From assembly GCF_054482525.1 (NCBI RefSeq), contig NZ_JBTHVG010000007.1: 64,000 bases of DNA. The stretch is one strand, 5' to 3'. Under the pieces are notes generated by a model. It was not told the DNA's origin, did not search any database, and was given only the letters and a program-made list of their open reading frames with translations. The translations under genes and the position numbers were made by a program. The DNA is from a plasmid. The stretch's first letter is position 1. Each line of letters starts with the position of its first letter. Shown piece by piece: positions 2,202-22,097 of the stretch.

Positions 2202-2990
2202 TCAACGCAAGATTCTCTCAATCGTTGCTTTGGCATATCGAACGAACGCGGCCGTCTCTTCGACGCGCATTGCTAGGTCGTCGTCCTCGCTACCCAGGTA
2301 CGCCGCGCGTGCCTTGCAGATGAGGGGCCGATGCTCGGCAGGCAAACGCTCCGATACCCATGCGGCAGCAACGTCCTTAGGAGCAATGAGACCAGTTGAA
2401 GCGCTGTACCAAATGCGAGCAAGAGCAAGAACGACGTTCCGCTCGTCACCCTTCCAATCCGACTCTGCATTCCACTGGGCAATAGTGTCGAAAAGCGCCT
2501 TGGAGAAATGCTCCTTCGGCACCGGCTCGAAAAACGTGGCTGCGGATGGGCCTAGAAGCGCAAGGCTGTGTTGCCTCGCCTTGGTCAGCAAAATCGCAAG
2601 ATCGTGATCCAGAACGGCAGGCTCGAACGTTCCGGAAAGGATGTCGTGGCGGAGCCACTCACCGAACTGAAGCTCACGCCGCGCCGGATAGCGCCAAGGC
2701 ACTACTTCGCTTCGAGCGACAACAGTTAGCTCCAGCGGTCGCCATGTTCCGCCATCGCCTGGCGGTGATGAGACTTTCAGCAAATCGAGCATTAGCGCCT
2801 GCCGGAGCGAATCGTTAGGTGCGGCGCTGACGGTCACGAGCAAGTCTATGTCGCTGTCCGGCTTCAGCCCTCCATCGATCGCAGATCCGAACAGGTGGAT
2901 TGTGTCCAGTGTCGCAGCCAGATGGCGCTCGATCACCGCGCGAGCGTGGGACAGCTGCTTGAAAACTTGTGCAGGGAAAAATTCACCCAT
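2202..2990 (-). CDS. aadA: Aminoglycoside 3''-adenylyltransferase AadA (streptomycin/spectinomycin resistance); allele not determined, possibly aadA16-like
   Basis: 262-aa ORF with AadA motifs (ERHL...HL[FY]GSA[IV]DGGLKP.SDIDLLVTV...GDERNVVL.L.RIWYSA.TG.IAPKDVAA.W); gene cassette between dfrA and 3'-CS with attC-like sequence downstream. Confidence 0.9.
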   Translation of the reverse strand: MGEFFPAQVFKQLSHARAVIERHLAATLDTIHLFGSAIDGGLKPDSDIDLLVTVSAAPNDSLRQALMLDLLKVSSPPGDGGTWRPLELTVVARSEVVPWRYPARRELQFGEWLRHDILSGTFEPAVLDHDLAILLTKARQHSLALLGPSAATFFEPVPKEHFSKALFDTIAQWNAESDWKGDERNVVLALARIWYSASTGLIAPKDVAAAWVSERLPAEHRPLICKARAAYLGSEDDDLAMRVEETAAFVRYAKATIERILR

Positions 2991-3120
2991 GATGCCTAAC
3001 GTTAAGTTCAGCGGCAGCTTTTAAGTTGCGGCTTTGTGGAATACTTTTGCGCAGCAAAACCACAAAGACGCGACTTAAAAGCTGTCCAAGGAGCGAAGCG
3101 ACTGGTGCTGCAACGCATTG

Positions 3121-3594
3121 TTAGCCTTTTTTCCAAATCTGGTATGTATAATTTATATTAGACATAAAAAACTGTTCAAAAACCAAATTGAAATTCTCAG
3201 GCATTATAGGGAATTTGATATCACCTTCGACTTCAACGTGAACAGTAGACAAATGAATTATATCTGCTTTTTCAATAAGGCTATTATAGATTTGACCCCC
3301 GCCAGAGACATATACATGATCTGTAACTTTTGATAGCTCTTTCAAAGCATTTTCTATTGAAGGAAAAACTAGGACGTTTTCATTTGAGCTTGAAATTCCG
3401 TTCTTTGACACTACTGCATATTTGCGATTTGGAAGAACACCCATAGAGTCAAATGTTTTTCTTCCGACAAGGAGCCATTGATTATATGTGAGCGCTTTAA
3501 AGAGTAGTTGCTCACCTTTTACTGACCACGGGATATCAGGACCACTACCGATTACGCCATTTTCTGACACTGCAGAAATCAATGATATTTTCAA
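3121..3594 (-). CDS. dfrA: Trimethoprim-resistant dihydrofolate reductase DfrA (dfrA1-like family; allele not determined, possibly dfrA27-like)
   Basis: 157 codons from a TTG start preceded by AAGGGAG; product [48 protein letters not shown]... typical of dfrA1-family; first cassette next to attI1. Confidence 0.85.
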
Positions 3595-3751
3595 TTTAAC
3601 TCCCTTAATGGCTAACTTTGTTTTAGGGCGACTGCCCTGCTGCGTAACATCGTTGCTGCTCCATAACATCAAACATCGACCCACGGCGTAACGCGCTTGC
3701 TGCTTGGATGCCCGAGGCATAGACTGTACAAAAAAACAGTCATAACAAGCC

Positions 3752-4967: not shown

Positions 4968-5318
4968 ATGGAGGTGGTAGCCGAGGGTGTGGAAACACCC
5001 GACTGCCTTGCGTGGTTGCGGCAGGCGGGTTGCGACACGGTGCAGGGTTTCCTGTTCGCCAGGCCGATGCCGGCGGCGGCCTTCGTCGGCTTCGTCAACC
5101 AATGGAGGAACACCACCATGAACGCCAATGAACCGAGCACCAGTTGCTGCGTGTGCTGCAAGGAAATCCCGCTCGATGCCGCCTTCACGCCGGAAGGGGC
5201 CGAGTACGTGGAGCATTTCTGCGGGCTGGAGTGCTATCAGCGCTTCCAGGCGCGGGCCAGCACTGCGACCGAAACCAGCGTCAAACCGGACGCTTGTGAT
5301 TCGCCGCCGTCAGGTTGA
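4968..5318 (+). CDS. tnpM: TnpM (C-terminal remnant of urf2, EAL-domain protein) of Tn21
   Basis: 116-aa ORF starting immediately after IRi: [42 protein letters not shown]...; Tn21 backbone context. Confidence 0.7.
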
Positions 5319-5443
5319 GGCATACCCTAACCTGATGTCAGATGCCATGTGTAAATTGCGTCAGGATAGGATTGAATTTTGAATTTATTGACATATCTCG
5401 TTGAAGGTCATAGAGTCTTCCCTGACATTTTGCAGGGAATTCC

Positions 5444-5601
5444 ATGACTGGACAGCGCATTGGGTATATCAGGGTCAGCACCTTCGACCAGAACCCGGAA
5501 CGGCAACTGGAAGGCGTCAAGGTTGATCGCGCTTTTAGCGACAAGGCATCCGGCAAGGATGTCAAGCGTCCGCAACTGGAAGCGCTGATAAGCTTCGCCC
5601 G
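5444..5601 (+). pseudogene. tnpR: Tn21 resolvase tnpR, 5' fragment truncated by IS26
   Basis: MTGQRIGYIRVSTFDQNPERQLEGVKVDRAFSDKASGKDVKRPQLEALISFAR then the IS26 inverted repeat; serine recombinase N-terminus. Confidence 0.8.
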
Positions 5602-6421
5602 GGCACTGTTGCAAAGTTAGCGATGAGGCAGCCTTTTGTCTTATTCAAAGGCCTTACATTTCAAAAACTCTGCTTACCAGGCGCATTTCGCCCAGGGGAT
5701 CACCATAATAAAATGCTGAGGTCTGGCCTTTGCGTAGTGCACGCATCACCTCAATACCTTTGATGGTGGCGTAAGCCGTCTTCATGGATTTAAATCCCAG
5801 CGTGGCGTTGATTATCCGTTTCAGTTTGCCATGATCGCATTCAATCACGTTGTTCCGGTACTTAATCTGTCGGTGTTCAACGTCAGACGGGCACCGGCCT
5901 TCGCGTTTGAGCAGAGCAAGCGCGCGACCATAGGCGGGCGCTTTATCCGTGTTGATGAATCGTGGGATCTGCCACTTCTTCACGTTGTTGAGGATTTTAC
6001 CCAGAAACCGGTATGCAGCTTTGCTGTTACGACGGGAGGAGAGATAAAAATCGACAGTGCGGCCCCGGCTGTCGACGGCCCGGTACAGATACGCCCAGCG
6101 GCCATTGACCTTCACGTAGGTTTCATCCATGTGCCACGGGCAAAGATCGGAAGGGTTACGCCAGTACCAGCGCAGCCGTTTTTCCATTTCAGGCGCATAA
6201 CGCTGAACCCAGCGGTAAATCGTGGAGTGATCGACATTCACTCCGCGTTCAGCCAGCATCTCCTGCAGCTCACGGTAACTGATGCCGTATTTGCAGTACC
6301 AGCGTACGGCCCACAGAATGATGTCACGCTGAAAATGCCGGCCTTTGAATGGGTTCATGTGCAGCTCCATCAGCAAAAGGGGATGATAAGTTTATCACCA
6401 CCGACTATTTGCAACAGTGCC
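5602..6421 (-). mobile_element. IS26 copy 1 (820 bp, IS6 family)
   Basis: Bounded by GGCACTGTTGCAAA terminal inverted repeats; encodes Tnp26. Confidence 0.95.
5654..6358 (-). CDS. tnpA: IS26 transposase Tnp26 (copy 1; carries a Thr where copies 2 and 3 have Ala in ...RKGQ[T/A]SAFYY...)
   Basis: MNPFKGRHFQRDIILWAVRWYCKYGISYRELQEMLAERGVNVDHSTIYRWVQRYAPEMEK... Confidence 0.95.
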   Translation of the reverse strand: MNPFKGRHFQRDIILWAVRWYCKYGISYRELQEMLAERGVNVDHSTIYRWVQRYAPEMEKRLRWYWRNPSDLCPWHMDETYVKVNGRWAYLYRAVDSRGRTVDFYLSSRRNSKAAYRFLGKILNNVKKWQIPRFINTDKAPAYGRALALLKREGRCPSDVEHRQIKYRNNVIECDHGKLKRIINATLGFKSMKTAYATIKGIEVMRALRKGQTSAFYYGDPLGEMRLVSRVFEM

Positions 6422-7713
6422 GTCGTAAACGGTCGAGTTTCATGATCCGTTTGAGGTGGGCGAAAAGCATCTCCACCTTCTTTCGTTCGCAGCGAGAGAC
6501 GAGGTACTCCGGTGTCTTGGCGATGCGTCGAGCCACGTCGCGGGCAGCCTCATGGATGCTGCGGACGATCTTCCGATTCGGCGTGTTGGGGCAGCATTTC
6601 GCTTTCAACGGGCAGGTGGCGCAGTCGGTTTGGCTGGAGCGGTAAATGACGGTTTTGGCCTTAGTTACCCGCGACCTTTGCTGGGTGAAGGCGCGCCATT
6701 CACTGCGTAGCGGTTTGCCGGCTGGGCAGCGATATTCATTGGCGTCCTGACTCCAGTGAAAGTCGTTACTGGAGAGGCTGTCGTCCTTGCGCTCGGTCTT
6801 GTCCCACACCGGCACATGCGGTTCGATGTCCTTTTCTTCGACCATCCAGGCCAGCATCGGGGCGGTGCCATAAGCGGTATCGCCGATAAGGCGTTCCGGT
6901 GTGAGATCGAACTGCGCCTCGACACGCTCGACCATCGTCCTAGTCGAATCGACTTCGGCGGTACGGTGCGCCGGGGTAGCTTCCACGTCCATGATCACAC
7001 CGTGCTCAGTGTCGATCAGGTAATTCGTGGAGTAGGCAAAAAAGGCCGGGCCACCTGGCGCTGCTGTCCAACGGGACTGAGGATCAGTGAGCGAAATTTT
7101 CTTGGGAAGAGCCTCAGCCAGCGCCTCTTCATCAAGGGCTTCGAGGTACTCGCGCACTGCGCGGCTGCTGAGCTTTGGATCGTTCCAATCGACCTCATCT
7201 CCCGCCACCCCACGTTGCCGGCTGGCATCCGCCTTAATGATGCTGGCGTCGACGGCGAAACCTTCACCCTTGACTAGGCCGGCTGCCATGCAGCGCCGCA
7301 GCACCTCATTGAATAACCAGCGGAATAGATCGCTGTCACGAAAACGCCCATGGCGATTCTTCGAGAAGGTCGAGTGATTGGGGACTTCGTCTTCCAGACC
7401 CAACCGGCAGAACCAGCGATAGGCCAGGTTCAGGTGCACCTCTTCGCACAATCGCCGCTCGGAACGAATGCCATAGCAAGTAGCCGACGACCAGCATGCG
7501 CACCATCAACTCCGGGTCAATCGAGGGACGCCCGATGGGGCTATAGAAATCTGCCAGGTAGGCACGTAGATCACTGAGATCCAAGCACTGGTCGATGCTG
7601 CGCAGGAGATGTTGGGCCGGGACGTGATCTTCCAGATTGAACGAGTAGAACAGGCGCTGCTGTCCTCCCGGTAACTGTCCCATCATGCTGTTCGCCCCCA
7701 CGCTCGCTGACAA
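6422..7713 (-). pseudogene. IS5/IS1182-family transposase, frameshifted and 3'-truncated by IS26
   Basis: Two overlapping minus-strand frames (N-part MSASVGANSMMGQLPGGQQRLFYSFNLEDHVPAQHLLRSIDQ...; C-part with DDE-like region) that together resemble one transposase; reading frame runs into the IS26 end. Confidence 0.55.
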
Positions 7714-7800: not shown

Positions 7801-8958
7801 TTACCCCACCAAACTCCGGAAACTCGCCCGGTAGTCCGTCGGCTTGAGATGCACATGTTGGCTGAGGTCGCCGGGTAGCGTGAACAGGCGCGGACCGTCC
7901 CGAAACTGGAACACGCGATACAGATGGAATTGATCGCCCGCCTCCTTGGAGAATTCGAGTTCGTTGTGGCTGACCAAGAAAGACGAGCCTACCCCGCCAT
8001 TGGTGGTTTTCACCTCGATGAAGCGCTCATGGGCGTCCTCTTCGAACGACAGGATGTCGAACCCCGCACCGTCTCCCTGGGTGTCGGACACCCAATCCAG
8101 CCGCTGAAAAAGCTCTGGGTGGCCGAGCTCGGTCAGGCGTTGCTGTTCGTAGCCAATCACCCACTGCTCCCCTGCCCGGCCCAGCTTGCGGTTGGCTTCA
8201 TCGCGAGCGGCATAATCGAACTTTCGCGGTAGGCGTTGCCGTAGAGATGCCGGGGTACGCACAAGCACTTCACGGGCGGGTGGTTCTACCAAAGCCGCTC
8301 GGTAGGTTTTGTCACCCGGAAGTTTTACCTCCTCCAGGGCATCGACAAGAGCGCCGACCGTCTGCTGATGTTCCAGAACGTAGGCGTGTACGGATTTACG
8401 CAGCAGCAGTTGGCTGTTGCCGCGTGGCTTGTAGCCGTTGATATAGGGCAGGCCCAGGGCATCGAGTACGGCGCTAATGTTCTGGTGCTTGAGCTCGACT
8501 GAAGACTTGCTGCGACCGTTCAGCAGTTGGCGCAGTGCCTGGTTGTGCTCGGACTTGTTGTACGGCTCCCCAGCCGCCTCGGCACGCAGCATGTCGAAAT
8601 AGTCTTCGACCGTGGCCAGGACCTCTTCTTCGGACCAGTCTTCGCCGATGCGAATGATGCGAAACCCGAGCCGCGTCAGCGCCGGAACGACGGTCGCCTC
8701 GCCACCGGAGAAGCTGTCAGCAGTGAGCGGGCCCTGCTCGGGAAATTGCTTGCCGAAGGCCACACCGGCGATGGCCTTGGAATCGCAATCGGTGCCGGTC
8801 TTCGGATCACGTACCAGGAAGTCGCGGGACTTGCCGTAGCCGTGGCGCGCCAGGAATTTCGTGCGGCCCAGTTGCACGAACTCATCGATGGCAGCCTGCA
8901 CGGCGGCGGGGCTTCGAAGCTGGGAGAGTTGAGACACAGGGTCCTTCCTTACTGTCAT
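7801..8958 (-). CDS. Putative restriction-endonuclease-like protein: N-terminal DNA-binding-like domain plus C-terminal DUF3883/NOV-C-like PD-(D/E)xK nuclease domain (function inferred)
   Basis: 385 aa from ATG at 8958 (MTVRKDPVSQ...); C-terminal region ...GAGFDILSFEEDAHERFIEVKTTNGG...HLYRVFQF resembles a D...E.K nuclease core. The ORF track extends to 9114 but the upstream part overlaps a separate small ORF. Confidence 0.45.
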   Translation of the reverse strand: MTVRKDPVSQLSQLRSPAAVQAAIDEFVQLGRTKFLARHGYGKSRDFLVRDPKTGTDCDSKAIAGVAFGKQFPEQGPLTADSFSGGEATVVPALTRLGFRIIRIGEDWSEEEVLATVEDYFDMLRAEAAGEPYNKSEHNQALRQLLNGRSKSSVELKHQNISAVLDALGLPYINGYKPRGNSQLLLRKSVHAYVLEHQQTVGALVDALEEVKLPGDKTYRAALVEPPAREVLVRTPASLRQRLPRKFDYAARDEANRKLGRAGEQWVIGYEQQRLTELGHPELFQRLDWVSDTQGDGAGFDILSFEEDAHERFIEVKTTNGGVGSSFLVSHNELEFSKEAGDQFHLYRVFQFRDGPRLFTLPGDLSQHVHLKPTDYRASFRSLVG

Positions 8959-8987
8959 GGTGTGCCGGGAACCGCCGAGCCACGAGA

Positions 8988-9233
8988 TTATGAGTAGCCC
9001 CTGAACAGAAACGTCACGATAAAAGCCGTGAACGCCACCAGGCCCATTAAATCCCTTGCGTATTTGCAGCCCGTGCTGTCCAAACCTGTACCAGGTCCGA
9101 TCAACACGCTCCAACCATTGAGGTACGAAAACACCGCCTGACCGAACAAAAAATGCGTGATAGCCGCCGCAGCCATGACGCCGGAATCGTCAGACAGGCT
9201 GTAGCTGTTGACCATTGCCCTGTACGCCTGCAT
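8988..9233 (-). CDS. Small hydrophobic protein (81 aa), possibly co-transcribed with the downstream nuclease-like gene
   Basis: ORF MQAYRAMVNSY...GLVAFTAFIVTFLFRGYS with hydrophobic stretches; ends about 30 bp before the ATG of the next gene on the same strand. Confidence 0.25.
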   Translation of the reverse strand: MQAYRAMVNSYSLSDDSGVMAAAAITHFLFGQAVFSYLNGWSVLIGPGTGLDSTGCKYARDLMGLVAFTAFIVTFLFRGYS

Positions 9234-9519
9234 CTGAAATGGCTATTGCCCTGATGGGAGCCGGCTTTTCAGCCACCGACACCAGCGATGCCGTCAATAT
9301 TCTTTACCCGATAACCATGACCGTACAAGCTAACAAGGCCTGGCAAGCCAGCGGACTTAAAAAGTCTTTTTTTCTACCATCCCACAAAAAAGTTCGTGGT
9401 GGAGAAAAGATAAGCTATGCAAGGCTTTAGGAGACGTGGTTTTTCAGGATGACGAAGAACGATTCGGCGCTAGGTGCAACATAGGTGCATCGCACGAGCG
9501 CTAGGAACGGCGAAAAAAG

Positions 9520-9552
9520 GCGGACGTGGCGAAATCGGTAGACGCAGCAGAC
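9520..9552 (+). tRNA. tRNA-Leu(UAA) exon 1 fragment (positions 1-32: acceptor 5' strand, D-arm, anticodon-stem 5' strand), cut by IS26
   Basis: GCGGACG-UG-GCGAAAUCGGUAGACGC-A-GCAGA-C has a tRNA-Leu-like D-arm; acceptor strand is exactly complementary to CGUCCGC at 12929-12935 on the minus strand. Confidence 0.6.
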
Positions 9553-10372
9553 GGCACTGTTGCAAATAGTCGGTGGTGATAAACTTATCATCCCCTTTTG
9601 CTGATGGAGCTGCACATGAACCCATTCAAAGGCCGGCATTTTCAGCGTGACATCATTCTGTGGGCCGTACGCTGGTACTGCAAATACGGCATCAGTTACC
9701 GTGAGCTGCAGGAGATGCTGGCTGAACGCGGAGTGAATGTCGATCACTCCACGATTTACCGCTGGGTTCAGCGTTATGCGCCTGAAATGGAAAAACGGCT
9801 GCGCTGGTACTGGCGTAACCCTTCCGATCTTTGCCCGTGGCACATGGATGAAACCTACGTGAAGGTCAATGGCCGCTGGGCGTATCTGTACCGGGCCGTC
9901 GACAGCCGGGGCCGCACTGTCGATTTTTATCTCTCCTCCCGTCGTAACAGCAAAGCTGCATACCGGTTTCTGGGTAAAATCCTCAACAACGTGAAGAAGT
10001 GGCAGATCCCACGATTCATCAACACGGATAAAGCGCCCGCCTATGGTCGCGCGCTTGCTCTGCTCAAACGCGAAGGCCGGTGCCCGTCTGACGTTGAACA
10101 CCGACAGATTAAGTACCGGAACAACGTGATTGAATGCGATCATGGCAAACTGAAACGGATAATCAACGCCACGCTGGGATTTAAATCCATGAAGACGGCT
10201 TACGCCACCATCAAAGGTATTGAGGTGATGCGTGCACTACGCAAAGGCCAGGCCTCAGCATTTTATTATGGTGATCCCCTGGGCGAAATGCGCCTGGTAA
10301 GCAGAGTTTTTGAAATGTAAGGCCTTTGAATAAGACAAAAGGCTGCCTCATCGCTAACTTTGCAACAGTGCC
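9553..10372 (+). mobile_element. IS26 copy 2 (820 bp)
   Basis: GGCACTGTTGCAAA inverted repeats; Tnp26 ORF on plus strand; 8 bp to its left (9545-9552) are CAGCAGAC. Confidence 0.95.
9616..10320 (+). CDS. tnpA: IS26 transposase Tnp26 (copy 2)
   Basis: Translation identical to copy 3. Confidence 0.95.
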   Translation: MNPFKGRHFQRDIILWAVRWYCKYGISYRELQEMLAERGVNVDHSTIYRWVQRYAPEMEKRLRWYWRNPSDLCPWHMDETYVKVNGRWAYLYRAVDSRGRTVDFYLSSRRNSKAAYRFLGKILNNVKKWQIPRFINTDKAPAYGRALALLKREGRCPSDVEHRQIKYRNNVIECDHGKLKRIINATLGFKSMKTAYATIKGIEVMRALRKGQASAFYYGDPLGEMRLVSRVFEM

Positions 10373-11381
10373 GGACTTTTCAAGTCTCGGAAGGTTTCTT
10401 CAATCTGCATTCGCTTCGAATAGATATTAACAAGTTGTTTGGGTGTTCGAATTTCAACAGGTAAGTTAGTTGCTAGAACCCATGGCTCCTTTGCCGACGC
10501 TGAGTAGATTTTAGGTGACGGGTGGTGACAATGAGTCCGTGTCGAGCGCTGATTTTTTCGGCCTTTAGAGCGAGATTTATACAATAGAATTTGGCATGAG
10601 ATTGGATTGCTTTTAGTCAGCCTCTTATAGCCTAAAGTCTTTGAGTGACTAGATGACATATCATGTAAGTTGCTGATAGGTTTCCAGTTTTCCGCTCCTA
10701 GGTCTGCATATTGTACTTTTCCTCTTACTCGACTTAACCAGTACCAACCCAGCTTCTCAACGGATTTATACCATGGCACTTTAAAGCCAGCATCACTGAC
10801 AATGAGCGGTGTGGTGTTACTCGGTAGAATGCTCGCAAGGTCGGCTAGAAATTGGTCATGAGCTTTCTTTGAACATTGCTCTGAAAGCGGGAACGCTTTC
10901 TCATAAAGAGTAACAGAACGACCGTGTAGTGCGACTGAAGCTCGCAATACCATAAGTCGTTTTTGCTCACGAATATCAGACCAGTCAACAAGTACAATGG
11001 GCATCGTATTGCCCGAACAGATAAAGCTAGCATGCCAACGGTATACAGCGAGTCGCTCTTTGTGGAGGTGACGATTACCTAACAATCGGTCGATTCGTTT
11101 GATGTTATGTTTTGTTCTCGCTTTGGTTGGCAGGTTACGGCCAAGTTCGGTAAGAGTGAGAGTTTTACAGTCAAGTAATGCGTGGCAAGCCAACGTTAAG
11201 CTGTTGAGTCGTTTTAAGTGTAATTCGGGGCAGAATTGGTAAAGAGAGTCGTGTAAAATATCGAGTTCGCACATCTTGTTGTCTGATTATTGATTTTTCG
11301 CGAAACCATTTGATCATATGACAAGATGTGTATCCACCTTAACTTAATGATTTTTACCAAAATCATTAGGGGATTCATCAG
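10373..11381 (-). mobile_element. Truncated IS10 (outer end plus 5' two-thirds of the transposase gene), cut by IS26
   Basis: Outer end ...CTGATGAATCCCCTAATGATTTTGGTAAAAATCATTAAG (complement at 11343-11381); partial transposase MCELDILHDSLYQFCPELHLKRLNSLTLACHALLDCKTLTLTELGRNLPTKARTKHNIKRIDRLLGNRHLHKERLAVYRWH... (IS4 family, IS10-like) whose frame runs into IS26. Confidence 0.85.
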
Positions 11382-11416
11382 CGTATAGTGTTTTGCAGTT
11401 TAGAGGAGATATCGCG

Positions 11417-12277
11417 ATGCATACGCGGAAGGCAATAACGGAGGCGCTTCAAAAACTCGGAGTCCAAACCGGTGACCTCTTGATGGTGCATGCCTCACTT
11501 AAAGCGATTGGTCCGGTCGAAGGAGGAGCGGAGACGGTCGTTGCCGCGTTACGCTCCGCGGTTGGGCCGACTGGCACTGTGATGGGATACGCGTCGTGGG
11601 ACCGATCACCCTACGAGGAGACTCTGAATGGCGCTCGGCTGGATGACGAAGCCCGCCGTACCTGGCTGCCGTTCGATCCCGCAACAGCCGGGACTTACCG
11701 TGGGTTCGGCCTGCTGAATCAATTTCTGGTTCAAGCCCCCGGCGCGCGGCGCAGCGCGCACCCCGATGCATCGATGGTCGCGGTTGGTCCGCTGGCTGAA
11801 ACGCTGACGGAGCCTCACGAACTCGGTCACGCCTTGGGGGAAGGATCGCCCGTCGAGCGGTTCGTTCGCCTTGGCGGGAAGGCCCTGCTGTTGGGTGCGC
11901 CGCTAAACTCCGTTACCGCATTGCACTACGCCGAGGCGGTTGCCGATATCCCCAACAAACGGTGGGTGACGTATGAGATGCCGATGCTTGGAAGAGACGG
12001 TGAAGTCGCCTGGAAAACGGCATCGGATTACGATTCAAACGGCATTCTCGATTGCTTTGCTATCGAAGGAAAGCCGGATGCGGTTGAAACTATAGCAAAT
12101 GCTTACGTGAAGCTCGGTCGCCATCGAGAAGGTGTCGTGGGCTTTGCTCAGTGCTACCTGTTCGACGCGCAGGACATCGTGACGTTCGGCGTCACCTATC
12201 TTGAGAAGCATTTCGGAACCACTCCGATCGTGCCTCCGCACGAGGCCGTCGAGCGCTCTTGCGAGCCTTCAGGTTAG
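11417..12277 (+). CDS. aac(3)-II: Aminoglycoside N(3)-acetyltransferase AAC(3)-II (gentamicin/tobramycin resistance)
   Basis: 286-aa product MHTRKAITEALQKLGVQTGDLLMVHASLKAIGPVEGGAETVVAALRSAVGPTGTVMGYASWDRSPYEETLNGARLDDEARRTW... Confidence 0.95.
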   Translation: MHTRKAITEALQKLGVQTGDLLMVHASLKAIGPVEGGAETVVAALRSAVGPTGTVMGYASWDRSPYEETLNGARLDDEARRTWLPFDPATAGTYRGFGLLNQFLVQAPGARRSAHPDASMVAVGPLAETLTEPHELGHALGEGSPVERFVRLGGKALLLGAPLNSVTALHYAEAVADIPNKRWVTYEMPMLGRDGEVAWKTASDYDSNGILDCFAIEGKPDAVETIANAYVKLGRHREGVVGFAQCYLFDAQDIVTFGVTYLEKHFGTTPIVPPHEAVERSCEPSG

Positions 12278-12289
12278 AGGCCGTCGACA

Positions 12290-12832
12290 ATGATAATCTG
12301 GATCAACGGACCTTTCGGCGCCGGAAAGACGACGCTCGCTAAGCGGCTGCGCGATCGGCGTTCCAAATCGCTGATCTTTGACCCCGAGGAAATCGGGTTC
12401 GTGGTGAAAGAAACGGTCCCCATGCCAGCGAGCGGAGACTATCAGGATCTCCCCTTGTGGAGGGGACTTACGATCGCGGCGGTCAGGGAGATTCGAAGGA
12501 ATTACTCGCAGGACATCATCATCCCAATGACGCTCGTGCACCCGGACTATCTGACTGAGATACTCGACGGGGTAAGGCGGATCGACGATCAGCTGCTGCA
12601 CATCTTTCTGACGCTCAACGAGGACCTATTGCGTCACCGGATCGCGAACCAGACCATGCATCCTGACCCGAATCGAAATGCGGAGATTCGAGAGTGGCGA
12701 TTAGCGAATGTCGCCCGATGCTTGGCCGCAAGGGAACGGCTTCCATGCACAACCCGTGTTCTCGATAGTGGTGCACACACCAGCGATGAACTCGCAGCGA
12801 TGGTGCTCGACGGAATCGATGGGCGCACCTGA
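12290..12832 (+). CDS. tmrB: TmrB-like ATP-binding protein (tunicamycin resistance family)
   Basis: 180-aa ORF with P-loop MIIWINGPFGAGKTTLAKRL; known aac(3)-II/tmrB pairing. Confidence 0.85.
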   Translation: MIIWINGPFGAGKTTLAKRLRDRRSKSLIFDPEEIGFVVKETVPMPASGDYQDLPLWRGLTIAAVREIRRNYSQDIIIPMTLVHPDYLTEILDGVRRIDDQLLHIFLTLNEDLLRHRIANQTMHPDPNRNAEIREWRLANVARCLAARERLPCTTRVLDSGAHTSDELAAMVLDGIDGRT

Positions 12833-12924
12833 TCGCCTTCGACGCCTGCGCAAAGCGTAGCGCGAGGGTGGCGGGCTCACGACCAAACGCCCAGAGGTCG
12901 ATCATCGCAGGGATGTTTGGCTTT

Positions 12925-12975
12925 GTGGTGCGGACGACGGGACTCGAACCCGTACTCTCACAGAGAAGCAGATTT
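12925..12975 (-). tRNA. tRNA-Leu(UAA) exon 2 (A35 to CCA: anticodon AA, anticodon-stem 3' strand, long variable arm, T-arm, acceptor 3' strand)
   Basis: Minus-strand RNA AAAA-UCUGC-UUCUCUGUGAGAGU-ACGGGUUCGAGUCCCGU-CGUCCGC-A-CCA; stems pair with the exon 1 fragment at 9520-9552. Confidence 0.6.
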
Positions 12976-13189
12976 TCGTACCACCTCGACTTTCGCCGCC
13001 GTCTGATGACGTTCGTGGTCTGGACTGTCCCTTCGCCATTGCCCGAAGGCTTTAGGCGCCGCCCGTCCAGTCTCTACACCTTCCCCCGAAGGGGCTTGGC
13101 TCGGGATTGGCTTAGGGTATTGCCCGTTAGCGTTCCCCGACTTTGAGCGGTTCTACTCCGCGGATTTCCCCGCGGGCACTCCAATTTTA
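12976..13189 (-). ncRNA. Group I (tRNA-Leu-type) intron, about 214 nt, inserted between U34 and A35 of tRNA-Leu(UAA)
   Basis: Follows exon ...CUU; ends with G before exon 2; contains elements recalled from cyanobacterial tRNA-Leu and Azoarcus tRNA-Ile introns (CCCGAGCCAAGCC; GAAGGUGUAGAGACUGGACGGG...CCUAA). Confidence 0.6.
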
Positions 13190-13199
13190 AAGTCTGCTG

Positions 13200-14019
13200 G
13201 GCACTGTTGCAAAGTTAGCGATGAGGCAGCCTTTTGTCTTATTCAAAGGCCTTACATTTCAAAAACTCTGCTTACCAGGCGCATTTCGCCCAGGGGATCA
13301 CCATAATAAAATGCTGAGGCCTGGCCTTTGCGTAGTGCACGCATCACCTCAATACCTTTGATGGTGGCGTAAGCCGTCTTCATGGATTTAAATCCCAGCG
13401 TGGCGTTGATTATCCGTTTCAGTTTGCCATGATCGCATTCAATCACGTTGTTCCGGTACTTAATCTGTCGGTGTTCAACGTCAGACGGGCACCGGCCTTC
13501 GCGTTTGAGCAGAGCAAGCGCGCGACCATAGGCGGGCGCTTTATCCGTGTTGATGAATCGTGGGATCTGCCACTTCTTCACGTTGTTGAGGATTTTACCC
13601 AGAAACCGGTATGCAGCTTTGCTGTTACGACGGGAGGAGAGATAAAAATCGACAGTGCGGCCCCGGCTGTCGACGGCCCGGTACAGATACGCCCAGCGGC
13701 CATTGACCTTCACGTAGGTTTCATCCATGTGCCACGGGCAAAGATCGGAAGGGTTACGCCAGTACCAGCGCAGCCGTTTTTCCATTTCAGGCGCATAACG
13801 CTGAACCCAGCGGTAAATCGTGGAGTGATCGACATTCACTCCGCGTTCAGCCAGCATCTCCTGCAGCTCACGGTAACTGATGCCGTATTTGCAGTACCAG
13901 CGTACGGCCCACAGAATGATGTCACGCTGAAAATGCCGGCCTTTGAATGGGTTCATGTGCAGCTCCATCAGCAAAAGGGGATGATAAGTTTATCACCACC
14001 GACTATTTGCAACAGTGCC
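13200..14019 (-). mobile_element. IS26 copy 3 (820 bp)
   Basis: GGCACTGTTGCAAA inverted repeats; 8 bp to its left (13192-13199) are GTCTGCTG, the reverse complement of CAGCAGAC. Confidence 0.95.
13252..13956 (-). CDS. tnpA: IS26 transposase Tnp26 (copy 3)
   Basis: Translation identical to copy 2. Confidence 0.95.
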   Translation of the reverse strand: MNPFKGRHFQRDIILWAVRWYCKYGISYRELQEMLAERGVNVDHSTIYRWVQRYAPEMEKRLRWYWRNPSDLCPWHMDETYVKVNGRWAYLYRAVDSRGRTVDFYLSSRRNSKAAYRFLGKILNNVKKWQIPRFINTDKAPAYGRALALLKREGRCPSDVEHRQIKYRNNVIECDHGKLKRIINATLGFKSMKTAYATIKGIEVMRALRKGQASAFYYGDPLGEMRLVSRVFEM

Positions 14020-15095
<1,076 letters not shown>

Positions 15096-15251
15096 TGAGA
15101 GCAGAGATAGCGCTGATGTCCGGCGGTGCTTTTGCCGTTACGCACCACCCCGTCAGTAGCTGAACAGGAGGGACAGCTGATAGAAACAGAAGCCACTGGA
15201 GCACCTCAAAAACACCATCATACACTAAATCAGTAAGTTGGCAGCATCACC
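15096..15251 (-). mobile_element. IS1 fragment (left inverted repeat plus first ~33 codons of insA), interrupted by the Tn2/Tn3 IRR
   Basis: Complement of GGTGATGCTGCCAACTTACTGATTTAGTGTATGATGGTGTTTTTGAGGTGCTCCAGTGGCTTCTGTTTCTATCAGCTGTCCCTCC...; ends where the Tn3-family IR begins. Confidence 0.85.
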
Positions 15252-16535
15252 TCCCTGTTTAAAATCATAATTTGGTTGTTCTGTTCTTGAGTTATTAAGT
15301 AGAGTTCTTATCAGTGTTTGCCAAGCATGATTGATAAATTTATTTTCTGATTCTTTAAAATATCGTCTGATTAAAGCACATAAATCTTCGACACTTTTCT
15401 GACGAGCGCTAGCTGCCCAACGGCCCCCTTCGGTTTGCACCATTGAACGTTGTACACTGTCTCCTAACTGAGCGATAAATTTCTGTTCATCGTCAAGTTG
15501 CATGTTTTCATTTATGATTAATTCATACAAAGCAAGAAAAACAGCTTGATAGTAACGAGGACATTCTTGAGATGAAGATGCATTGCCCAGAATGTGTGAT
15601 CTAAAGTTCAAATTATTTGCATCAAATAATTTTTGAATCATCTCATAAACGAAGAGGTAATTATTGACAATTTTATCTGCACCATTTGTCTGAATGTAAT
15701 TCTCTAATTGAGTTCGTGTATGGATTGCATGACTCGTCGAACCTTCACCGTAAAATGTATCGAGCGATGTTGATCCTGATGTTGGCTTATCATCTAAAAA
15801 TATATAGCCCAAGATATTTGCAACTAACTCTTCATCGTCAGAGTCTCTAATGCTAGGCCTACTAATGATATGATTTCTAATATAGAAATGATTGTCTATA
15901 TTTATTCCATAATCGAGTCCATCATTGCAAATTGATATGTTATGTATTTTATTCAGTCCCATTATATCGCTATGTGTAGTATCTCCTCTTATAATTGTCG
16001 ATATTTTCCTTACTAACTCTGAAAAATTACTAACGCACCCCGCACTTCGTAGTTCTTGTTTTGATAAAATTTTACCATTGGAATTTATGCGTCGAAACAC
16101 TTCGTCAATGTGGTCCTCTGTTGAAGAGTATTCAGATATAGCAAATCTATAGCGAGCAATTAATGTAGAACTTTCGCGGGATAGCACTGGCTCTTTTTGT
16201 TGAAGTTTACCACTGTCTTTTAGTTGTTTTGTTAATGCAATGGCATCTAAATTAAAGTATTTACCATTTAATGAAAATCGCTGCTCAATAAAACTCATTA
16301 AAGCTTCTAGTCTTTGCATTCCATCAAGGATTTCTCTTTTGTTGTCAATGGAAACAAACAATAGCAAAGGGATAGGGTATTGCTGAGTCATTGATGAAAT
16401 CAGTGCTGTTTTCTCTTCGAGGGACCATACTAATTTTCTTTGGTATCTTCGATTTATAATTAATTTATCATCCAGATACCACTCGTATAATTCTTCTGCT
16501 GTCTTGGAGTCAATATCTAAGTTTTCATTAGCCAT
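15225..16535 (-). CDS. DUF262 (ParB-like nuclease/NTPase, GmrSD-family N-terminal domain) protein, C-terminus replaced by IS1 sequence
   Basis: 436-aa ORF with DUF262-like motifs (RRYQRKLVWSLEEK...ILDGMQRLEAL); about 33% GC; last 8 codons and stop (GDAANLLI*) are encoded by the IS1 inverted repeat. Confidence 0.5.
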   Translation of the reverse strand: MANENLDIDSKTAEELYEWYLDDKLIINRRYQRKLVWSLEEKTALISSMTQQYPIPLLLFVSIDNKREILDGMQRLEALMSFIEQRFSLNGKYFNLDAIALTKQLKDSGKLQQKEPVLSRESSTLIARYRFAISEYSSTEDHIDEVFRRINSNGKILSKQELRSAGCVSNFSELVRKISTIIRGDTTHSDIMGLNKIHNISICNDGLDYGINIDNHFYIRNHIISRPSIRDSDDEELVANILGYIFLDDKPTSGSTSLDTFYGEGSTSHAIHTRTQLENYIQTNGADKIVNNYLFVYEMIQKLFDANNLNFRSHILGNASSSQECPRYYQAVFLALYELIINENMQLDDEQKFIAQLGDSVQRSMVQTEGGRWAASARQKSVEDLCALIRRYFKESENKFINHAWQTLIRTLLNNSRTEQPNYDFKQGGDAANLLI

Positions 16536-16819
16536 TAGATGTATCTCGAGTATTTAGTTAAGAAACTGATAGGTCAGTATTTGCATCAATGTTCATTGAA
16601 TTTGTATCCGAAGTCAATCTGATGTAGGAACTTCAAAACTGCGCAAAACACGCAAATACGCACAAGAAAGTAGGGCTGCGCTTGGAATTCGGAAAATAAA
16701 CCACATCAAAACTACTTTTTAGCCAAATAACGTTTGGGAATCACCAGAATGGTGGGACAACAGCGGTTTTAGTGCCCTAAATCGTACGTTTTCATCCAGT
16801 TGCCCCTCAAACCCCATGT

Positions 16820-17152
16820 TCAAGTCAGAATAGTGGACAGGCGGCCAAGAACTTCGTTCATGATAGTCTCCGGAACCCGTTCGAGTCGTTTTCCGCCCCG
16901 TGCTTTCATATCAATTGTCCGGGGTTGATCGCAACGTACAACACCTGTGGTACGTATGCCAACACCATCCAACGACACCGCAAAGCCGGCAGTGCGGGCA
17001 AAATTGCCTCCGCTGGTTACGGGCACAACAACAGGCAGGCGGGTCACGCGATTAAAGGCCGCCGGTGTGACAATCAGCACCGGCCGCGTTCCCTGCTGCT
17101 CATGACCTGCGGTAGGATCAAGCGAGACAAGCCAGATTTCCCCTCTTTCCAT
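16820..17152 (-). CDS. pemK: PemK (MazF/Kid-family endoribonuclease toxin)
   Basis: MERGEIWLVSLDPTAGHEQQGTRPVLIVTPAAFNRVTRLPVVVPVTSGGNFARTAGFAVSL... Confidence 0.9.
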   Translation of the reverse strand: MERGEIWLVSLDPTAGHEQQGTRPVLIVTPAAFNRVTRLPVVVPVTSGGNFARTAGFAVSLDGVGIRTTGVVRCDQPRTIDMKARGGKRLERVPETIMNEVLGRLSTILT

Positions 17153-17153
17153 G

Positions 17154-17411
17154 TCAGATTTCCTCCTGACCAGTCGCCGGTGCATCCAGCCATTCTCGTT
17201 CTTCAGCTGATATTTCAGCATTCGGATCACACTGTGCCAGTAGCTCAGCCAGTGAATATTGCGGGCGTCTGTACGGCTCAACAATCAGCCGGCCATTATC
17301 AATGACCATGCCAACTTCATTATCTGTGCCCAGAGACAGCGCATTCAGCAGTGCCGGTGGGACGGTCAGCATAACTGAGCCGCCAACCCTCTTCAGTCGG
17401 GTGGTATGCAT
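17154..17411 (-). CDS. pemI: PemI antitoxin
   Basis: 85-aa ORF MHTTRLKRVGGSVMLTVPPALLNALSLGTDNEVGMVIDNGRLIVEPY... directly upstream of pemK. Confidence 0.85.
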   Translation of the reverse strand: MHTTRLKRVGGSVMLTVPPALLNALSLGTDNEVGMVIDNGRLIVEPYRRPQYSLAELLAQCDPNAEISAEEREWLDAPATGQEEI

Positions 17412-17503
17412 TCTTCACCTCCATAAAAGTTATATTTAAATATAACATCCACTAAAAAAACACACCAGGCTTTAACGCACAATGTTTAATAAAAATATAA
17501 CTT

Positions 17504-18157
17504 TCAACCAAACAGTAAACCCAGCGTGGTTGCTTCCATATGCAGCAATACCGGCAGCAGCAGGCCACCACTTCTGATCCTGGCCACTGATGTAATCAAC
17601 CCCACCAGGAACAGTTCTGCCAGTGTCAGCAGGTTCTGATACTGGCTGTGCGCGGCGACGAACAACAACGACGTTATCAGCGCCCCCAGCCACATCGTCC
17701 AGCAGTACCGTGAACGGAAGACGTTCAGCATAATCCCCCGGAACAGCGTTTCCTCATTCAACGGGGCAAGGATAAAGATGGTCAGCAACGTCAGGATCAC
17801 GTCAGGTATGGACTTATCGGCAAAAAGTTTCGTCATAAATGGCTCAGCAGGCAGAGCCAGCGCCTTACCGAGCAGAAATACACCGACATACACCACGGCC
17901 ATCGCACCGACCAGCCACGGTACGCCAACGTTGCGCAGCTGACCAACGACCGGTAGCGGAGCTATCCAACGGCGGTATACCAGGAAAACACACAGCAGGT
18001 ACATCAGAACAGTACCATGACTGAAGAACAAATAGTTTTTTCCTGATCCATAAAGCAGAACGGCCTGCTCCATGACAAATCTGGCTCCCCAACTAATGCC
18101 CCATGCAGCCAGCATAACCAGCATAAACTGCAGATATTGATTACGTGTTTGAATCAT
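17504..18157 (-). CDS. CPBP-family intramembrane metalloprotease (CAAX protease-like)
   Basis: 217-aa multi-pass membrane ORF with EE..FRG and ..H....N-like motifs (NEETLFRGIMLNVF; FVAAHS). Confidence 0.5.
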   Translation of the reverse strand: MIQTRNQYLQFMLVMLAAWGISWGARFVMEQAVLLYGSGKNYLFFSHGTVLMYLLCVFLVYRRWIAPLPVVGQLRNVGVPWLVGAMAVVYVGVFLLGKALALPAEPFMTKLFADKSIPDVILTLLTIFILAPLNEETLFRGIMLNVFRSRYCWTMWLGALITSLLFVAAHSQYQNLLTLAELFLVGLITSVARIRSGGLLLPVLLHMEATTLGLLFG

Positions 18158-18779
18158 TGCATCGCCTGTAAATTTTTAACTTGTCCTATTTTTGTCATTA
18201 CCACGTATATACACATGTATAACAATTCAGATATCGTTACCAGGATATGCCGCATCAGCGGCATGGAAGGCGGCACTCTGTTGTTTCATATGATACAGGA
18301 GTAAAACCGCCGAAGCCCGGCGTAAGCCGGTACTGATTGATAGATTTCACCTTACCCATCCCCAGCCCTGCCAGACCATACCCGCTTTCAGCCATGAGAG
18401 AGCTTCTGTGCGCGGTCGGAGTGGTCCCGACGAGGGTTTACCCGAAGTCGGGGCGTATCTCCGCGTTAGCGGGCCGTGAGGGCCGCTTACGAGCGTGTAC
18501 TGAGAACTTCCAGCGAGAAGACTGACAGCGATGAAGATGTAGTTACAACATTCATAATTAAAAGCGACTCTGTTCCGGCCCTTTGGGCCGGGGCGGGGCC
18601 GCTTTTCAGTTATGAGGGAGGGGCTTTGTGGTTTCGGTTCTGCGCTGGACCGGGGTTTTTCTGGAGGTTGTTTTTGTGTGTTGTAACTAAAGTGACTCCG
18701 GTAGGGGCCCGCGGCTTGCGGTGGGAGGTGCATATCTGTCTGTCCACAGGACAGGCAGTGAATAGGTTTTCTTTTTAAA

Positions 18780-19095
18780 TGAATGTAATTAAGTAGTTTA
18801 AAGGAGATATAAACAGGTGTTTAAAAGATACATTGCACCCTGTAAGGCTGGCGCCTGGTGCTTTATGACATGAACGGTTGTAACCTTATGGGGAAGTCCA
18901 TTGCAGTTAAATGTGGATAAGCAAAATTCCCCGTCTGTGAGGCGTGTTTTGTATCAAAAACAGGGGGGGCCAGATGCACCAGAAGGTGGATGATGAGGTT
19001 GTTTTTTGTATGAGGTGCTGCTTTTTTGTTCGCTGGCAGGCTTCAGGCGTGCGAATGCCTCCGGTGCGGGCCGGATTATTCAGAAGAGGTCACTT
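18780..19095. other. RepFII origin region (oriR) downstream of repA1, approximate
   Basis: AT-rich stretch with a DnaA-box-like TTATCCACA (complement near 18912) immediately 3' of repA1. Confidence 0.35.
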
Positions 19096-19953
19096 TCAGG
19101 GGGAAGCTGTGGCCAGCCGGCTGTAATTACGGTTACGTGACAGAATCATGCGCTCTTTCACACGACGCTCCACTTCGCGTTTTACCGCCTCACGATTGGC
19201 AGTGAAGCGCCCTTCCGAGATTTCACGCGTCAGCTGCCGTTTCACCAGGGTGACGATATCCTGACGTTCCCTGTTCGCATCACGACGCGCACGGGCACGC
19301 TTTATTCCACGGGACTTAAGCTCTGTCTGGTAACTGCGGAAACGCTCACGCACAAAACGCCAGGCTTTCGCTATCAGTTCATCCATACCCAGGGTATCCA
19401 GCCCCTGCTTTTTGCGCTGTCTGTTTTCCCATTCAACACGACTGCGGCGCGCAGCAACCACTGCATCCTCAGACACATCAAGGGCGGCAAATAACGCCGG
19501 TGTGAACGTGATATCGGTCGGAATGTAGCACCCGATAAGCGGATCATATTCCGTCTGGTAGGTAATCAGTCCCAGCTCTGCAAGGAACGTCAAGGCTCGG
19601 GAGGCCCGGGTGATGGAGAGTTTTCCGGCAGCAGACTCCGTCGCCAGTCCGCACTCAATGGCCAGCGTAGTGATGGAGCACTGGACGCGGTTGGCCAGCG
19701 GGTCATAGTGAAAACACAGCCCCTGCAGCAGCGCATCAATAGCCCGGCGACGCAGTACCGGTGGCATGCGCCGACGCAGTCCCTTCGAACGGGCATGTGC
19801 CACATGAATGGCGAAATCAAAACGGGAGGTGAAGCCCACCGCCTTTTCCATCAGTTTTTCGCAGAACTTCAGCGTTCCGGCACCTTCACGGGGTGTGAAC
19901 ACCGGATTCGGATTTTTAACCTGTGAATAGTATTTTTGAAGGAGATCAGCCAT
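19096..19953 (-). CDS. repA1: IncFII replication initiator RepA1
   Basis: 285-aa product [56 protein letters not shown]...; RBS GGAGGGGGAC. Confidence 0.93.
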
Positions 19954-20428
19954 GTCCCCCTCCAACACTATTCCCCCTCCTACGGGCGGTAACTAGCTCG
20001 TCTGGGCCGACACGTAAAGTTTCGAACATATCTGGTCTGAACCAGATGGTTCCTCCATCAAAAGCGATGAGATGAAGATCATTATCAAGAGTTTTGAGGG
20101 CTCTCCAAACACGAGTGTATGAACCTCCACTACAAACTGAAAGCTCTTTAACAGATAAGTTAACTTTGTTCGTATCAGGGATGTAGTGTGCGCACATTAC
20201 TTGTACGAGGGAAACATAAAAACTAACCATCGACGCGCTGATTTTATTTTTACGTTTGCCATGCGCTATTGCAAGCAAACCTCTGATGAAGATCAGATGC
20301 TTGAAGGAGTCAAAATGAGCCCTTTTCTGGAGAAGGCTGCAAAACGGGTGAGGATACTTGCTGGAATCAATGTGAAGATCTGATTCAATCCCACCCGCTA
20401 TTACTGAATGTGTTTCATGATTAGCCAC
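19946..20428 (-). CDS. Extra ORF between tap and repA1 encoding a divergent homolog of the RepA1 N-terminal half (about 160 aa)
   Basis: GTG start overlaps the tap stop (GTGGCTAA) and TGA stop overlaps the repA1 ATG (ATGGCTGA); by-eye alignment to RepA1 residues ~30-165 (FC..L..KA..F...C.HY.P..N.V..S...L...CG...R...AL..L..LGLI...ARR); about 42% GC versus about 58% for repA1. Alternative in-frame GTG at 20440. Confidence 0.5.
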
Positions 20429-20495
20429 ACCATCCTGCACTTACAATGCACAGAAGGAGTGAGCACAGAAAGAAGTCTTGAACTTTTCCGGGCAT
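20421..20495 (-). CDS. repA6: RepA leader peptide Tap (repA6), 24 aa
   Basis: ATGCCCGGAAAAGTTCAAGAC... = [24 protein letters not shown], near-identical to the R100/R1 tap peptide as I recall it. Confidence 0.7.
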
Positions 20496-20544
20496 ATAAC
20501 TATACTCCCCGCATAGCTGAATTGTTGGCTATGCGGTTTTATGG

Positions 20545-20640
20545 GGCCCCGGTAATCTTTCTAGTCGCCAAACTTGAAGAAGATTATCGGGGTTTTCGCT
20601 TTTCTGGCTCCTGTAAATCCACATCAGAACCAGTTCCCTG
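20545..20640 (+). ncRNA. copA: CopA antisense RNA region (copy-number control; FII typing locus), approximate
   Basis: Plus-strand region antisense to the repA leader between repA2 and tap; lies within the span bounded by the FII typing primer sequences (CACACCATCCTGCACTTA ... AAAATTCCTTAAACGATCAG) as I recall them; exact ends not determined. Confidence 0.35.
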
Positions 20641-20726
20641 CCACCTTACGGCGTGGCCAGCCACAAAATTCCTTAAACGATCAGCAATCTACCACTCACT
20701 CCTGAGATAAGCAAGAATGTGAATAT

Positions 20727-20984
20727 TTACGAAGTCGCTCTGCGTTTCAGCTCTGATTCAATCAGTTTTTCAAGCATCTGCGCCTGAGTAATACCTTCCT
20801 CATCCGCCAGTTCACTCAGCCTGTCTTTTAACCGGGCCTGAATAACCGCATGAAAAGCCTTATGAGTGTTGCTTCTGCGAGCCAGAGAAGCTCTTTGCCT
20901 CTCTCTGGCCGGAACAGGGTTACCTTTCCGGTATGTACGCTTGGTGCCTGATGAGGAAGTCACTGCATTTTCTGTCTGCGACAT
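20727..20984 (-). CDS. repA2: RepA2 / CopB transcriptional repressor of repA1
   Basis: 85-aa [28 protein letters not shown]...[20 protein letters not shown]. Confidence 0.85.
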
Positions 20985-21267
20985 CTCGCCTCCTCAATTC
21001 TCAAACAGGGATCGTTTCGCAGAGAATACTACAGTTTTTTGAAATCAGCGACTTGAAAGTTGTGACGATGATCTGTGTTGGCGCACAAATCATGTCTGAT
21101 TACGACCGTTTAATGTGATTTTGATAATGAAATGACTGAAAAGCTGGAAATGCCTTAGCCAGGGTGCCGGCCCCGGGCGGGACCGGCTGTTTCTGGTATA
21201 TAGGGTGTCTGCCCCTGAAATACCTCACACTTCCGGAAAGCGGGGACTTCCGTCCCCGCCCGGCAGC

Positions 21268-21474
21268 TTACTTCCGTGCTTCGTAGGCCAGAGTTACCTG
21301 CACCACTGTATTTCCTCTGTGAATATTCAGCTCACATAACCGTTCCCTGAATATCAGTGAAAAACACAACACCGTGGCGCACACGGCGAGCAACCCGATA
21401 AGGGCATATTTCGTCATAAACTTTGACCTCTCAGCAAAGAAGAGGCTACAATCAGTAGTGTTAAGGTACTTCAT
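21268..21474 (-). CDS. srnB: Hok/SrnB-family type I toxin (start uncertain)
   Basis: C-terminal MTKYALIGLLAVCATVLCFSLIFRERLCELNIHRGNTVVQVTLAYEARK is Hok-family; structured GC-rich leader upstream. Confidence 0.6.
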   Translation of the reverse strand: MKYLNTTDCSLFFAERSKFMTKYALIGLLAVCATVLCFSLIFRERLCELNIHRGNTVVQVTLAYEARK

Positions 21475-22097
21475 GCAGACCTCACGAGTTAATGGATTAA
21501 CGAGTGGGGTCTTCGCATTTCTGGTACCTGCGTCTTGCCTGAACCAGAAAGGCTCAAACACCCGCCGCGATAATACCACATTCCCTGTTGCTGACTATTA
21601 CCCCCATTTGCCTGTTTTTGTTACAAAAACGCCGGGAGCGGGGGAAAACTTACTTTTTCCCGTTTCCGGGGGGGACAACTGAGCATTGCGAACGCGTCAG
21701 CTACGATGTTCCGGTGATTGCTGATCAGCCCCTGTTGTATTCATAAACTAATTAACATTCATTCTGTCTGGTGCATAAATCTGCCCGTGAACATCTGCAG
21801 ACAATACCGGCCATGAAAAGATAAATAATACCAGTGGAATATATTTCCTCATGTTATTCTCCATATCAGATAAATGGCACCTGTATTTCAGCCCCCCTGA
21901 ATATCGCAGCACACATTGAATAAGACCTTATTTTGTGAAATTAATCACAAAATATAAAATCGCGACTTAATACGGAAAAAACTCTGTGCTACTCAGAACT
22001 GGCCGGTCATACTGCCCGACCGGATATTAAAAAAAGCAAATCTCATAAACTCCTTTCAGCCTTCTGACTCCTGGAGTAATGAAGGCTGCTTTTTTCG

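Follow-up and report, generated by a model that had tools for sequence, protein, structure and literature searches.

A Rare Single-Base Variant of IS26-v1 Distinguishes One of Three IS26 Copies in an IncF Multiresistance Plasmid

All three IS26 copies in the 64-kb stretch of plasmid DNA that we analyzed (in the following the window) are IS26-v1 or a derivative of it, and one of them, copy 1, is set apart by a single further base, G700A, which is a rare allele tied to one insertion site in the tnpR gene of Tn21. We consider it probable that IS26-v1 inserted into tnpR, that G700A then arose in place as a near-neutral marker, that the IRL side of the element was exchanged later, and that copies 2 and 3 go back to a separate inversion. 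The window is part of an IncF multiresistance plasmid, since its positions 20001-45000 hold an F-type conjugative transfer region (traI, traD, traG, traN, traH and others), which matches many E. coli and Shigella IncF plasmids and one Klebsiella plasmid at 100% identity along 25 kb.

Results and Discussion

The terminal repeat GGCACTGTTGCAAA matches the window six times, where 0.07 matches are expected by chance, and these matches delimit three units of 820 bp (Table 1). Each unit is bounded by the 14-bp perfect terminal inverted repeats of IS26 and contains, as expected of this IS6/IS26-family element, a single intact ORF for a 234-aa DDE transposase, Tnp26, with a Pfam DDE_Tnp_IS240 match over residues 75-212 (E=5e-49). 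A 20-mer scan gave no additional IS26 fragments in the 64-kb window.

Table 1. Features of the window around the three IS26 copies.
Feature	Position	Strand	Remarks
tnpR 5' remnant (Tn21 resolvase)	5444-5601	+	cut by copy 1; coordinates transferred by offset 1301
IS26 copy 1	5602-6421	-	IS26-v1 backbone (A459, AA613-614, Tnp26 G184N) plus G700A (A213T); tnp26 on the minus strand
Differing base	5722	-	T on the plus strand; C at 13320 in copy 3, G at 10252 in copy 2 (opposite strand)
Truncated ISCfr1 (IS1182-like) transposase gene	6423-7686	-	adjoins the IRL end of copy 1; coordinates transferred from pAH62-3
8-bp target copy CAGCAGAC	9545-9552	+	directly left of copy 2
IS26 copy 2	9553-10372	+	plain IS26-v1; exact reverse complement of copy 3
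Inverted segment between copies 2 and 3	10373-13191	.	ISVsa5 fragment, aac(3)-IId, tmrB-like ATPase gene
aac(3)-IId	11417-12277	+	within the inverted segment
tmrB-like ATPase gene	12290-12832	+	within the inverted segment
8-bp target copy GTCTGCTG	13192-13199	+	directly left of copy 3; reverse complement of 9545-9552
IS26 copy 3	13200-14019	-	plain IS26-v1; adjoins blaTEM-1
blaTEM-1	14088-14948		adjoins copy 3

A full base-by-base comparison gave 0 differences between copy 2 and the reverse complement of copy 3, and exactly one between copy 1 and the other two, at window position 5722 (copies 1 and 3 lie in the same orientation). In transposase-sense IS26 coordinates this base is G700A, and it lies 120 bp inward from the end of copy 1 that carries IRR. 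It changes codon 213 from GCC to ACC and hence Ala213 of the 234-aa Tnp26 to Thr, so that copy 1 reads RKGQTSAFYY and copies 2 and 3 read RKGQASAFYY. The original prediction had described this difference of one nucleotide from the peptides, and the alignment of all three copies bears it out, with no misreading involved.

A single base in a repeated element could in principle reflect a consensus error or mis-assigned reads, with three copies that are in truth identical. The probability of this is close to nil: at least 16 independent complete E. coli assemblies, from several countries and hosts, have this base equally far from an identical junction, and the resulting protein with G184N and A213T has its own RefSeq accession, WP_073520228.1. 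We therefore rejected a sequencing or assembly error at 5722.

For the assignment of the alleles we took as reference IS26 the copy from pHCM1 with the standard transposase WP_001067855.1. [quoted passage not shown] Copies 2 and 3 depart from the reference at three positions, namely G459A, which is silent, and GG613-614AA, which gives G184N. Copy 1 carries the same three changes together with G700A and thus departs at four. By definition, IS26-v1 departs from IS26 at three nucleotides, two of them accounting for G184N (PMC9412624), and G184N has itself been used as the definition (PMC11137137). The variant was formerly named IS26* (Pong et al. 2019) and owes its present name to Harmer, Pong and Hall 2021, both as cited in PMC9412624, PMC11137137 and PMC12540391; the same three papers report it to have an enhanced cointegration activity. 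Copies 2 and 3 match this definition exactly and are IS26-v1. Copy 1, with its one extra change and its doubly substituted Tnp26, is a derivative of IS26-v1 and not plain v1. Reference IS26 is absent among the three window copies, which is the main addition to the original prediction.

In the papers accessible to our search, no mention of A213T together with IS26 was found, and those dealing with IS15DI and IS15DIV do not describe these elements at the nucleotide level. Single-base divergence between co-resident IS26 copies is also seen in pHCM1 itself, where one of the two copies that we compared (96-915 of the extracted segment) has a private C348T relative to the other.

Intramolecular replicative transposition of IS26 and other IS6-family elements in inverse orientation leads to an inversion with reverse-complementary 8-bp flanks. 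Copies 2 and 3 carry this classical signature: they are identical and inverted, each has beside it one of the reverse-complementary targets CAGCAGAC and GTCTGCTG (chance about 1.5e-5 per comparison), and the segment between them is inverted relative to pAH62-3. We rebuilt the window before the inversion by removing copy 2 and one target copy and by re-inverting 10373-13191. An alignment of the rebuilt window with pAH62-3 runs collinearly and free of gaps for 12,371 bp, with 4 mismatches, and pAH62-3 has the target CAGCAGAC as an intact 8-bp stretch (13244-13251 of the extracted segment). The data thus support copies 2 and 3 as sister copies from such an event. It is a textbook example with no unusual feature; a chromosomal inversion caused by IS26-v1 has been described as well (PMC6787325).

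The original prediction had likewise given copies 2 and 3 a recent shared origin, consistent with an inversion, and this conclusion holds. The identity of the two copies, on which it had been based, does not carry it, because IS26-v1 is very common and any two v1 copies are identical. Indeed, an exact-protein look-up placed the G184N protein on at least 1000 contigs, and a survey of plasmids arrived at 1,385 identical IS26-v1 copies (PMC11137137). The sister status rests on the reverse-complementary flanks and on the collinearity with pAH62-3 after re-inversion.

The flank pattern fits copy 3 as the resident donor and copy 2 as the new copy. We rejected the opposite assignment, which would need matching right-hand flanks, and none are present. 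Copy 3, next to blaTEM-1, would thus have transposed replicatively (copy-in), in inverse orientation and within its own molecule, into the target CAGCAGAC at a distance of 2.8 kb. Copy 2 and the inversion of the aac(3)-IId segment would both have come from this event, which would be independent of copy 1 and more recent. Because the relatives show the un-inverted arrangement, we regard the inversion as a distinct event that probably came later. As a side observation, pAH62-3 contains two partial ISVsa5 transposase fragments (15169-17146 of the extracted segment) compared to one in the window (10373-11381), which corresponds to a tandem duplication of about 1 kb.

Copy 1 has different neighbors. 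Its IRR end adjoins the tnpR' remnant of Tn21, which lies downstream of tnpM, intI1, dfrA17, aadA5, qacEΔ1 and sul1, and its IRL end adjoins the truncated ISCfr1, with which a tmrB-aac(3)-IId module begins that is also present in pAH62-3. The flanks TTCGCCCG and GTCGTAAA differ, and the 8-bp direct duplication of a simple insertion is not found around copy 1 in the window. Once the inversion is undone, copies 1 and 3, both with tnp26 on the minus strand, bracket ΔISCfr1...tmrB-aac(3)-IId-ISVsa5Δ as in pAH62-3. By its structure, with directly oriented copies flanking a passenger, the unit from copy 1 through aac(3)-IId to copy 3 before the inversion is a predicted IS26 pseudo-compound transposon or translocatable unit.

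In relatives, the IS is flanked on either side by the last 8 bp of the tnpR remnant, TTCGCCCG, as a target-site duplication (TSD). In p2HS-C-2, whose left flank is 100% identical to the window over 4.3 kb, a v1 copy with 700A sits inside tnpR between direct TTCGCCCG repeats, and 'tnpR-tnpA is intact. The plasmids p118C_1_p1 and pPE131_2 have the same tnpR insertion with the same TSD, but with plain v1 (700G). The 3' part of tnpR and tnpA of Tn21 are absent from the entire 64-kb window, where the ΔISCfr1-aac(3)-IId module replaces them. Given the TSD in the relatives and the unlike flanks in the window, copy 1 has therefore lost its original IRL-side flank.

To see how 700A is distributed, we searched PLSDB and the E. 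coli RefSeq complete genomes with a 61-bp probe centered on the SNP. In PLSDB 21 plasmids matched exactly for 700A, and in E. coli RefSeq 22 records did; all are from E. coli. By comparison, more than 5,800 IS26-bearing records (22,717 places) have G at this position. A 60-bp probe across the tnpR'/IS26 junction found the identical junction in 22 PLSDB plasmids, again all from E. coli; 15 of these 22 have 700A and 7 have 700G. Insertions of IS26 into Tn21 tnpR are known from IncF multiresistance regions with the dfrA17-aadA5 integron, mph(A), IS6100 and chrA. With a 300-bp probe, the E. coli RefSeq genomes gave 16 records with the tnpR' junction and 700A and at least 7 with 700G. All records that combine the tnpR' junction with 700A match the query only up to 4 bp beyond the IS and therefore retain 'tnpR on the other side. 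The IS26/ΔISCfr1 junction is widespread with 700G, and both junctions of the window (tnpR' and ΔISCfr1) occur together in four plasmids, all four with 700G. The full combination of tnpR', IS26 with 700A and ΔISCfr1 (window 5302-6721) had no record in PLSDB or the E. coli RefSeq complete genomes, and hence comes from a source that the two collections do not cover, or represents an arrangement newly made by recombination. The allele 700A is accordingly rare and tied to one Tn21 tnpR insertion site. The separate history that the original prediction had ascribed to copy 1 is borne out by this rare site-linked SNP and by the copy's own tnpR site with the TSD TTCGCCCG in relatives.

Two further plasmids with v1 and 700A, pEC0430-2 and pEC21Z014-112K, have a changed IRR-side junction, with orf5Δ-sul1 instead of tnpR'. 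The dfrA17-aadA5-sul1 integron is inverted here between IS6100 and the variant IS26 (15718-21533 of the extracted segment of pEC0430-2, 13728-19543 of that of pEC21Z014-112K). Its other boundary is at IS6100, chrA-padR and tnpR' are lost, and in pEC21Z014-112K about 53 bp more of 'tnpR are deleted beside the IS. At the inverted integron of the two plasmids no partner IS26 or TSD remains. The changed junctions hint that the ends of the double variant may have been active since the mutation.

Such activity would fit an origin in which v1 with 700A transposed (copy-in) into tnpR as an already mutated element and the 700G copies found there go back to later conversion by other v1 copies. The majority of 700A at the tnpR junction (15/22 in PLSDB) points in the same direction. 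We nevertheless regard this as unlikely. No v1 copy with 700A and a TSD of its own was found at another site, and every other double-variant context that we examined keeps the 'tnpR side or a nearby deletion and so traces back to the tnpR insertion. Moreover, conversion events are needed here that a mutation in place does not require. Of the original prediction, by which copy 1 had arrived or diverged separately, divergence in place is thus the better supported half, because the same tnpR insertion exists with unmutated v1; arrival in the mutated state is less well supported.

The sequences, alleles and flanks, the collinearity after re-inversion and the linkage of the SNP to the tnpR junction among the plasmids are direct observations. 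For a mutation in place, the most probable reading, we infer from them the following order of events. On an IncF plasmid of E. coli, IS26-v1 would have inserted into Tn21 tnpR, upstream of a class 1 integron with dfrA17-aadA5 and with duplication of TTCGCCCG, and the G-to-A change at position 700 would have arisen in the resident copy and been inherited with the plasmid lineage. On the IRL side, 'tnpR-tnpA would later have been exchanged for the ΔISCfr1...tmrB-aac(3)-IId module, either by homologous (RecA-dependent) recombination between IS26 copies or by Tnp26-mediated incorporation of a translocatable unit. The SNP would have stayed with the tnpR' junction because it is only 120 bp away: an exchange anywhere in the remaining 700 bp of the IS keeps it, and leaves it linked to the left junction only. 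This exchange step is a deduction, as no record in either collection joins 700A with ΔISCfr1. SNPs in the flanks are not numerous enough to reveal where copy 1 came from: the 5.6 kb to its left hold a single informative difference, and the 3.1 kb to its right hold none. We also considered pCUVET18-62.1 (blaTEM/IS26/tnpR') as the ancestral state with a single IS and rejected it, given its differing junctions, an extra IS26 fragment and blaTEM in two partial predictions.

Two observations count against the mutation in place. The mutated allele outnumbers the unmutated one at the tnpR site (15 vs 7), so that the polarity is not proven, and 700A is also present on two other IS26 backbones, so that the SNP of copy 1 could have been imported. 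In four extracted segments, each with IS26 at 2911-3730, the same 700A change is found on differing backbones: on the standard one in CP059945 and MH329870, and on one with C43T/G181A/T276G (V40M, D71E) in CP091692 and CP104845. By exact protein, A213T alone is encoded on 91 contigs, G184N with A213T on 46 and V40M/D71E/A213T on 7. The contexts of A213T on the standard backbone are unrelated: one is an IncF plasmid of Canadian turkey origin, another an IncHI2 mcr plasmid. The 613-614 and 700 markers are thus known in all four combinations, which takes either recurrent mutation or recombination between IS26 alleles.

Recombination would make copy 1 a hybrid, in which an IS26 with A213T passed 700A to a v1 backbone through homologous recombination or gene conversion, with a crossover between 614 and 700. 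The numbers above, with A213T commoner on the standard backbone (91 vs 46 contigs), its unrelated contexts when alone and the complete set of marker combinations, argue for this, as does the frequent presence of different IS26 alleles on one replicon (PMC11137137). Allele replacement has a precedent of its own: at identical repC/IS26/mph(A) junctions, pEC0430-2 has standard IS26 (10730-11549 of the segment) and pEC21Z014-112K a mixed v1/standard allele with AA613-614 and G459, possibly IS26-v3 (8740-9559), which suggests replacement or conversion at a fixed site. In the relatives with the TSD, however, both flanks are tnpR. A single crossover would change one of them, so that the transfer would have to be a short conversion patch, no longer than about 206 bp and confined to the IRR end. 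A copy with A213T only did not turn up at the tnpR site. Among spontaneous changes, G-to-A transitions are the most frequent, and homoplasy is therefore cheap. Taken together, we consider a hybrid origin possible but doubtful, and keep to the mutation in place.

Residue 213 of Tnp26 is the first one beyond the Pfam match, in a C-terminal tail described as having no known motif (PMC8477213). The ORF and both terminal repeats of copy 1 are intact. We regard the substitution as probably near-neutral. The 90% Tnp26 cluster has 4,851 members, and other variants such as I122T and G184N with Y143N are each encoded on hundreds of contigs. The SNP of copy 1 is in this respect ordinary, one of thousands of minor Tnp26 variants and already present in public databases. 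The occurrence of A213T on three backbones might also reflect convergent selection for a change in the C-terminal tail that alters activity or regulation, or frequent recombination within the IS that shuffles substitutions among IS26 alleles. The double variant of copy 1 would in either case represent a new functional allele. [quoted passage not shown]

Conclusion

In summary, no new element was found and the understanding of IS26 biology is unchanged; the practical value of the SNP is modest. It separates copy 1 from copies 2 and 3 and thereby allows the order and mechanism of rearrangements in the multiresistance region to be reconstructed. It also marks out, among the IncF plasmids of E. 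coli, a small lineage with IS26-v1 in Tn21 tnpR. Finally, all three copies carry G184N and are thus of the variant with enhanced activity, which bears on how readily this region rearranges and amplifies.
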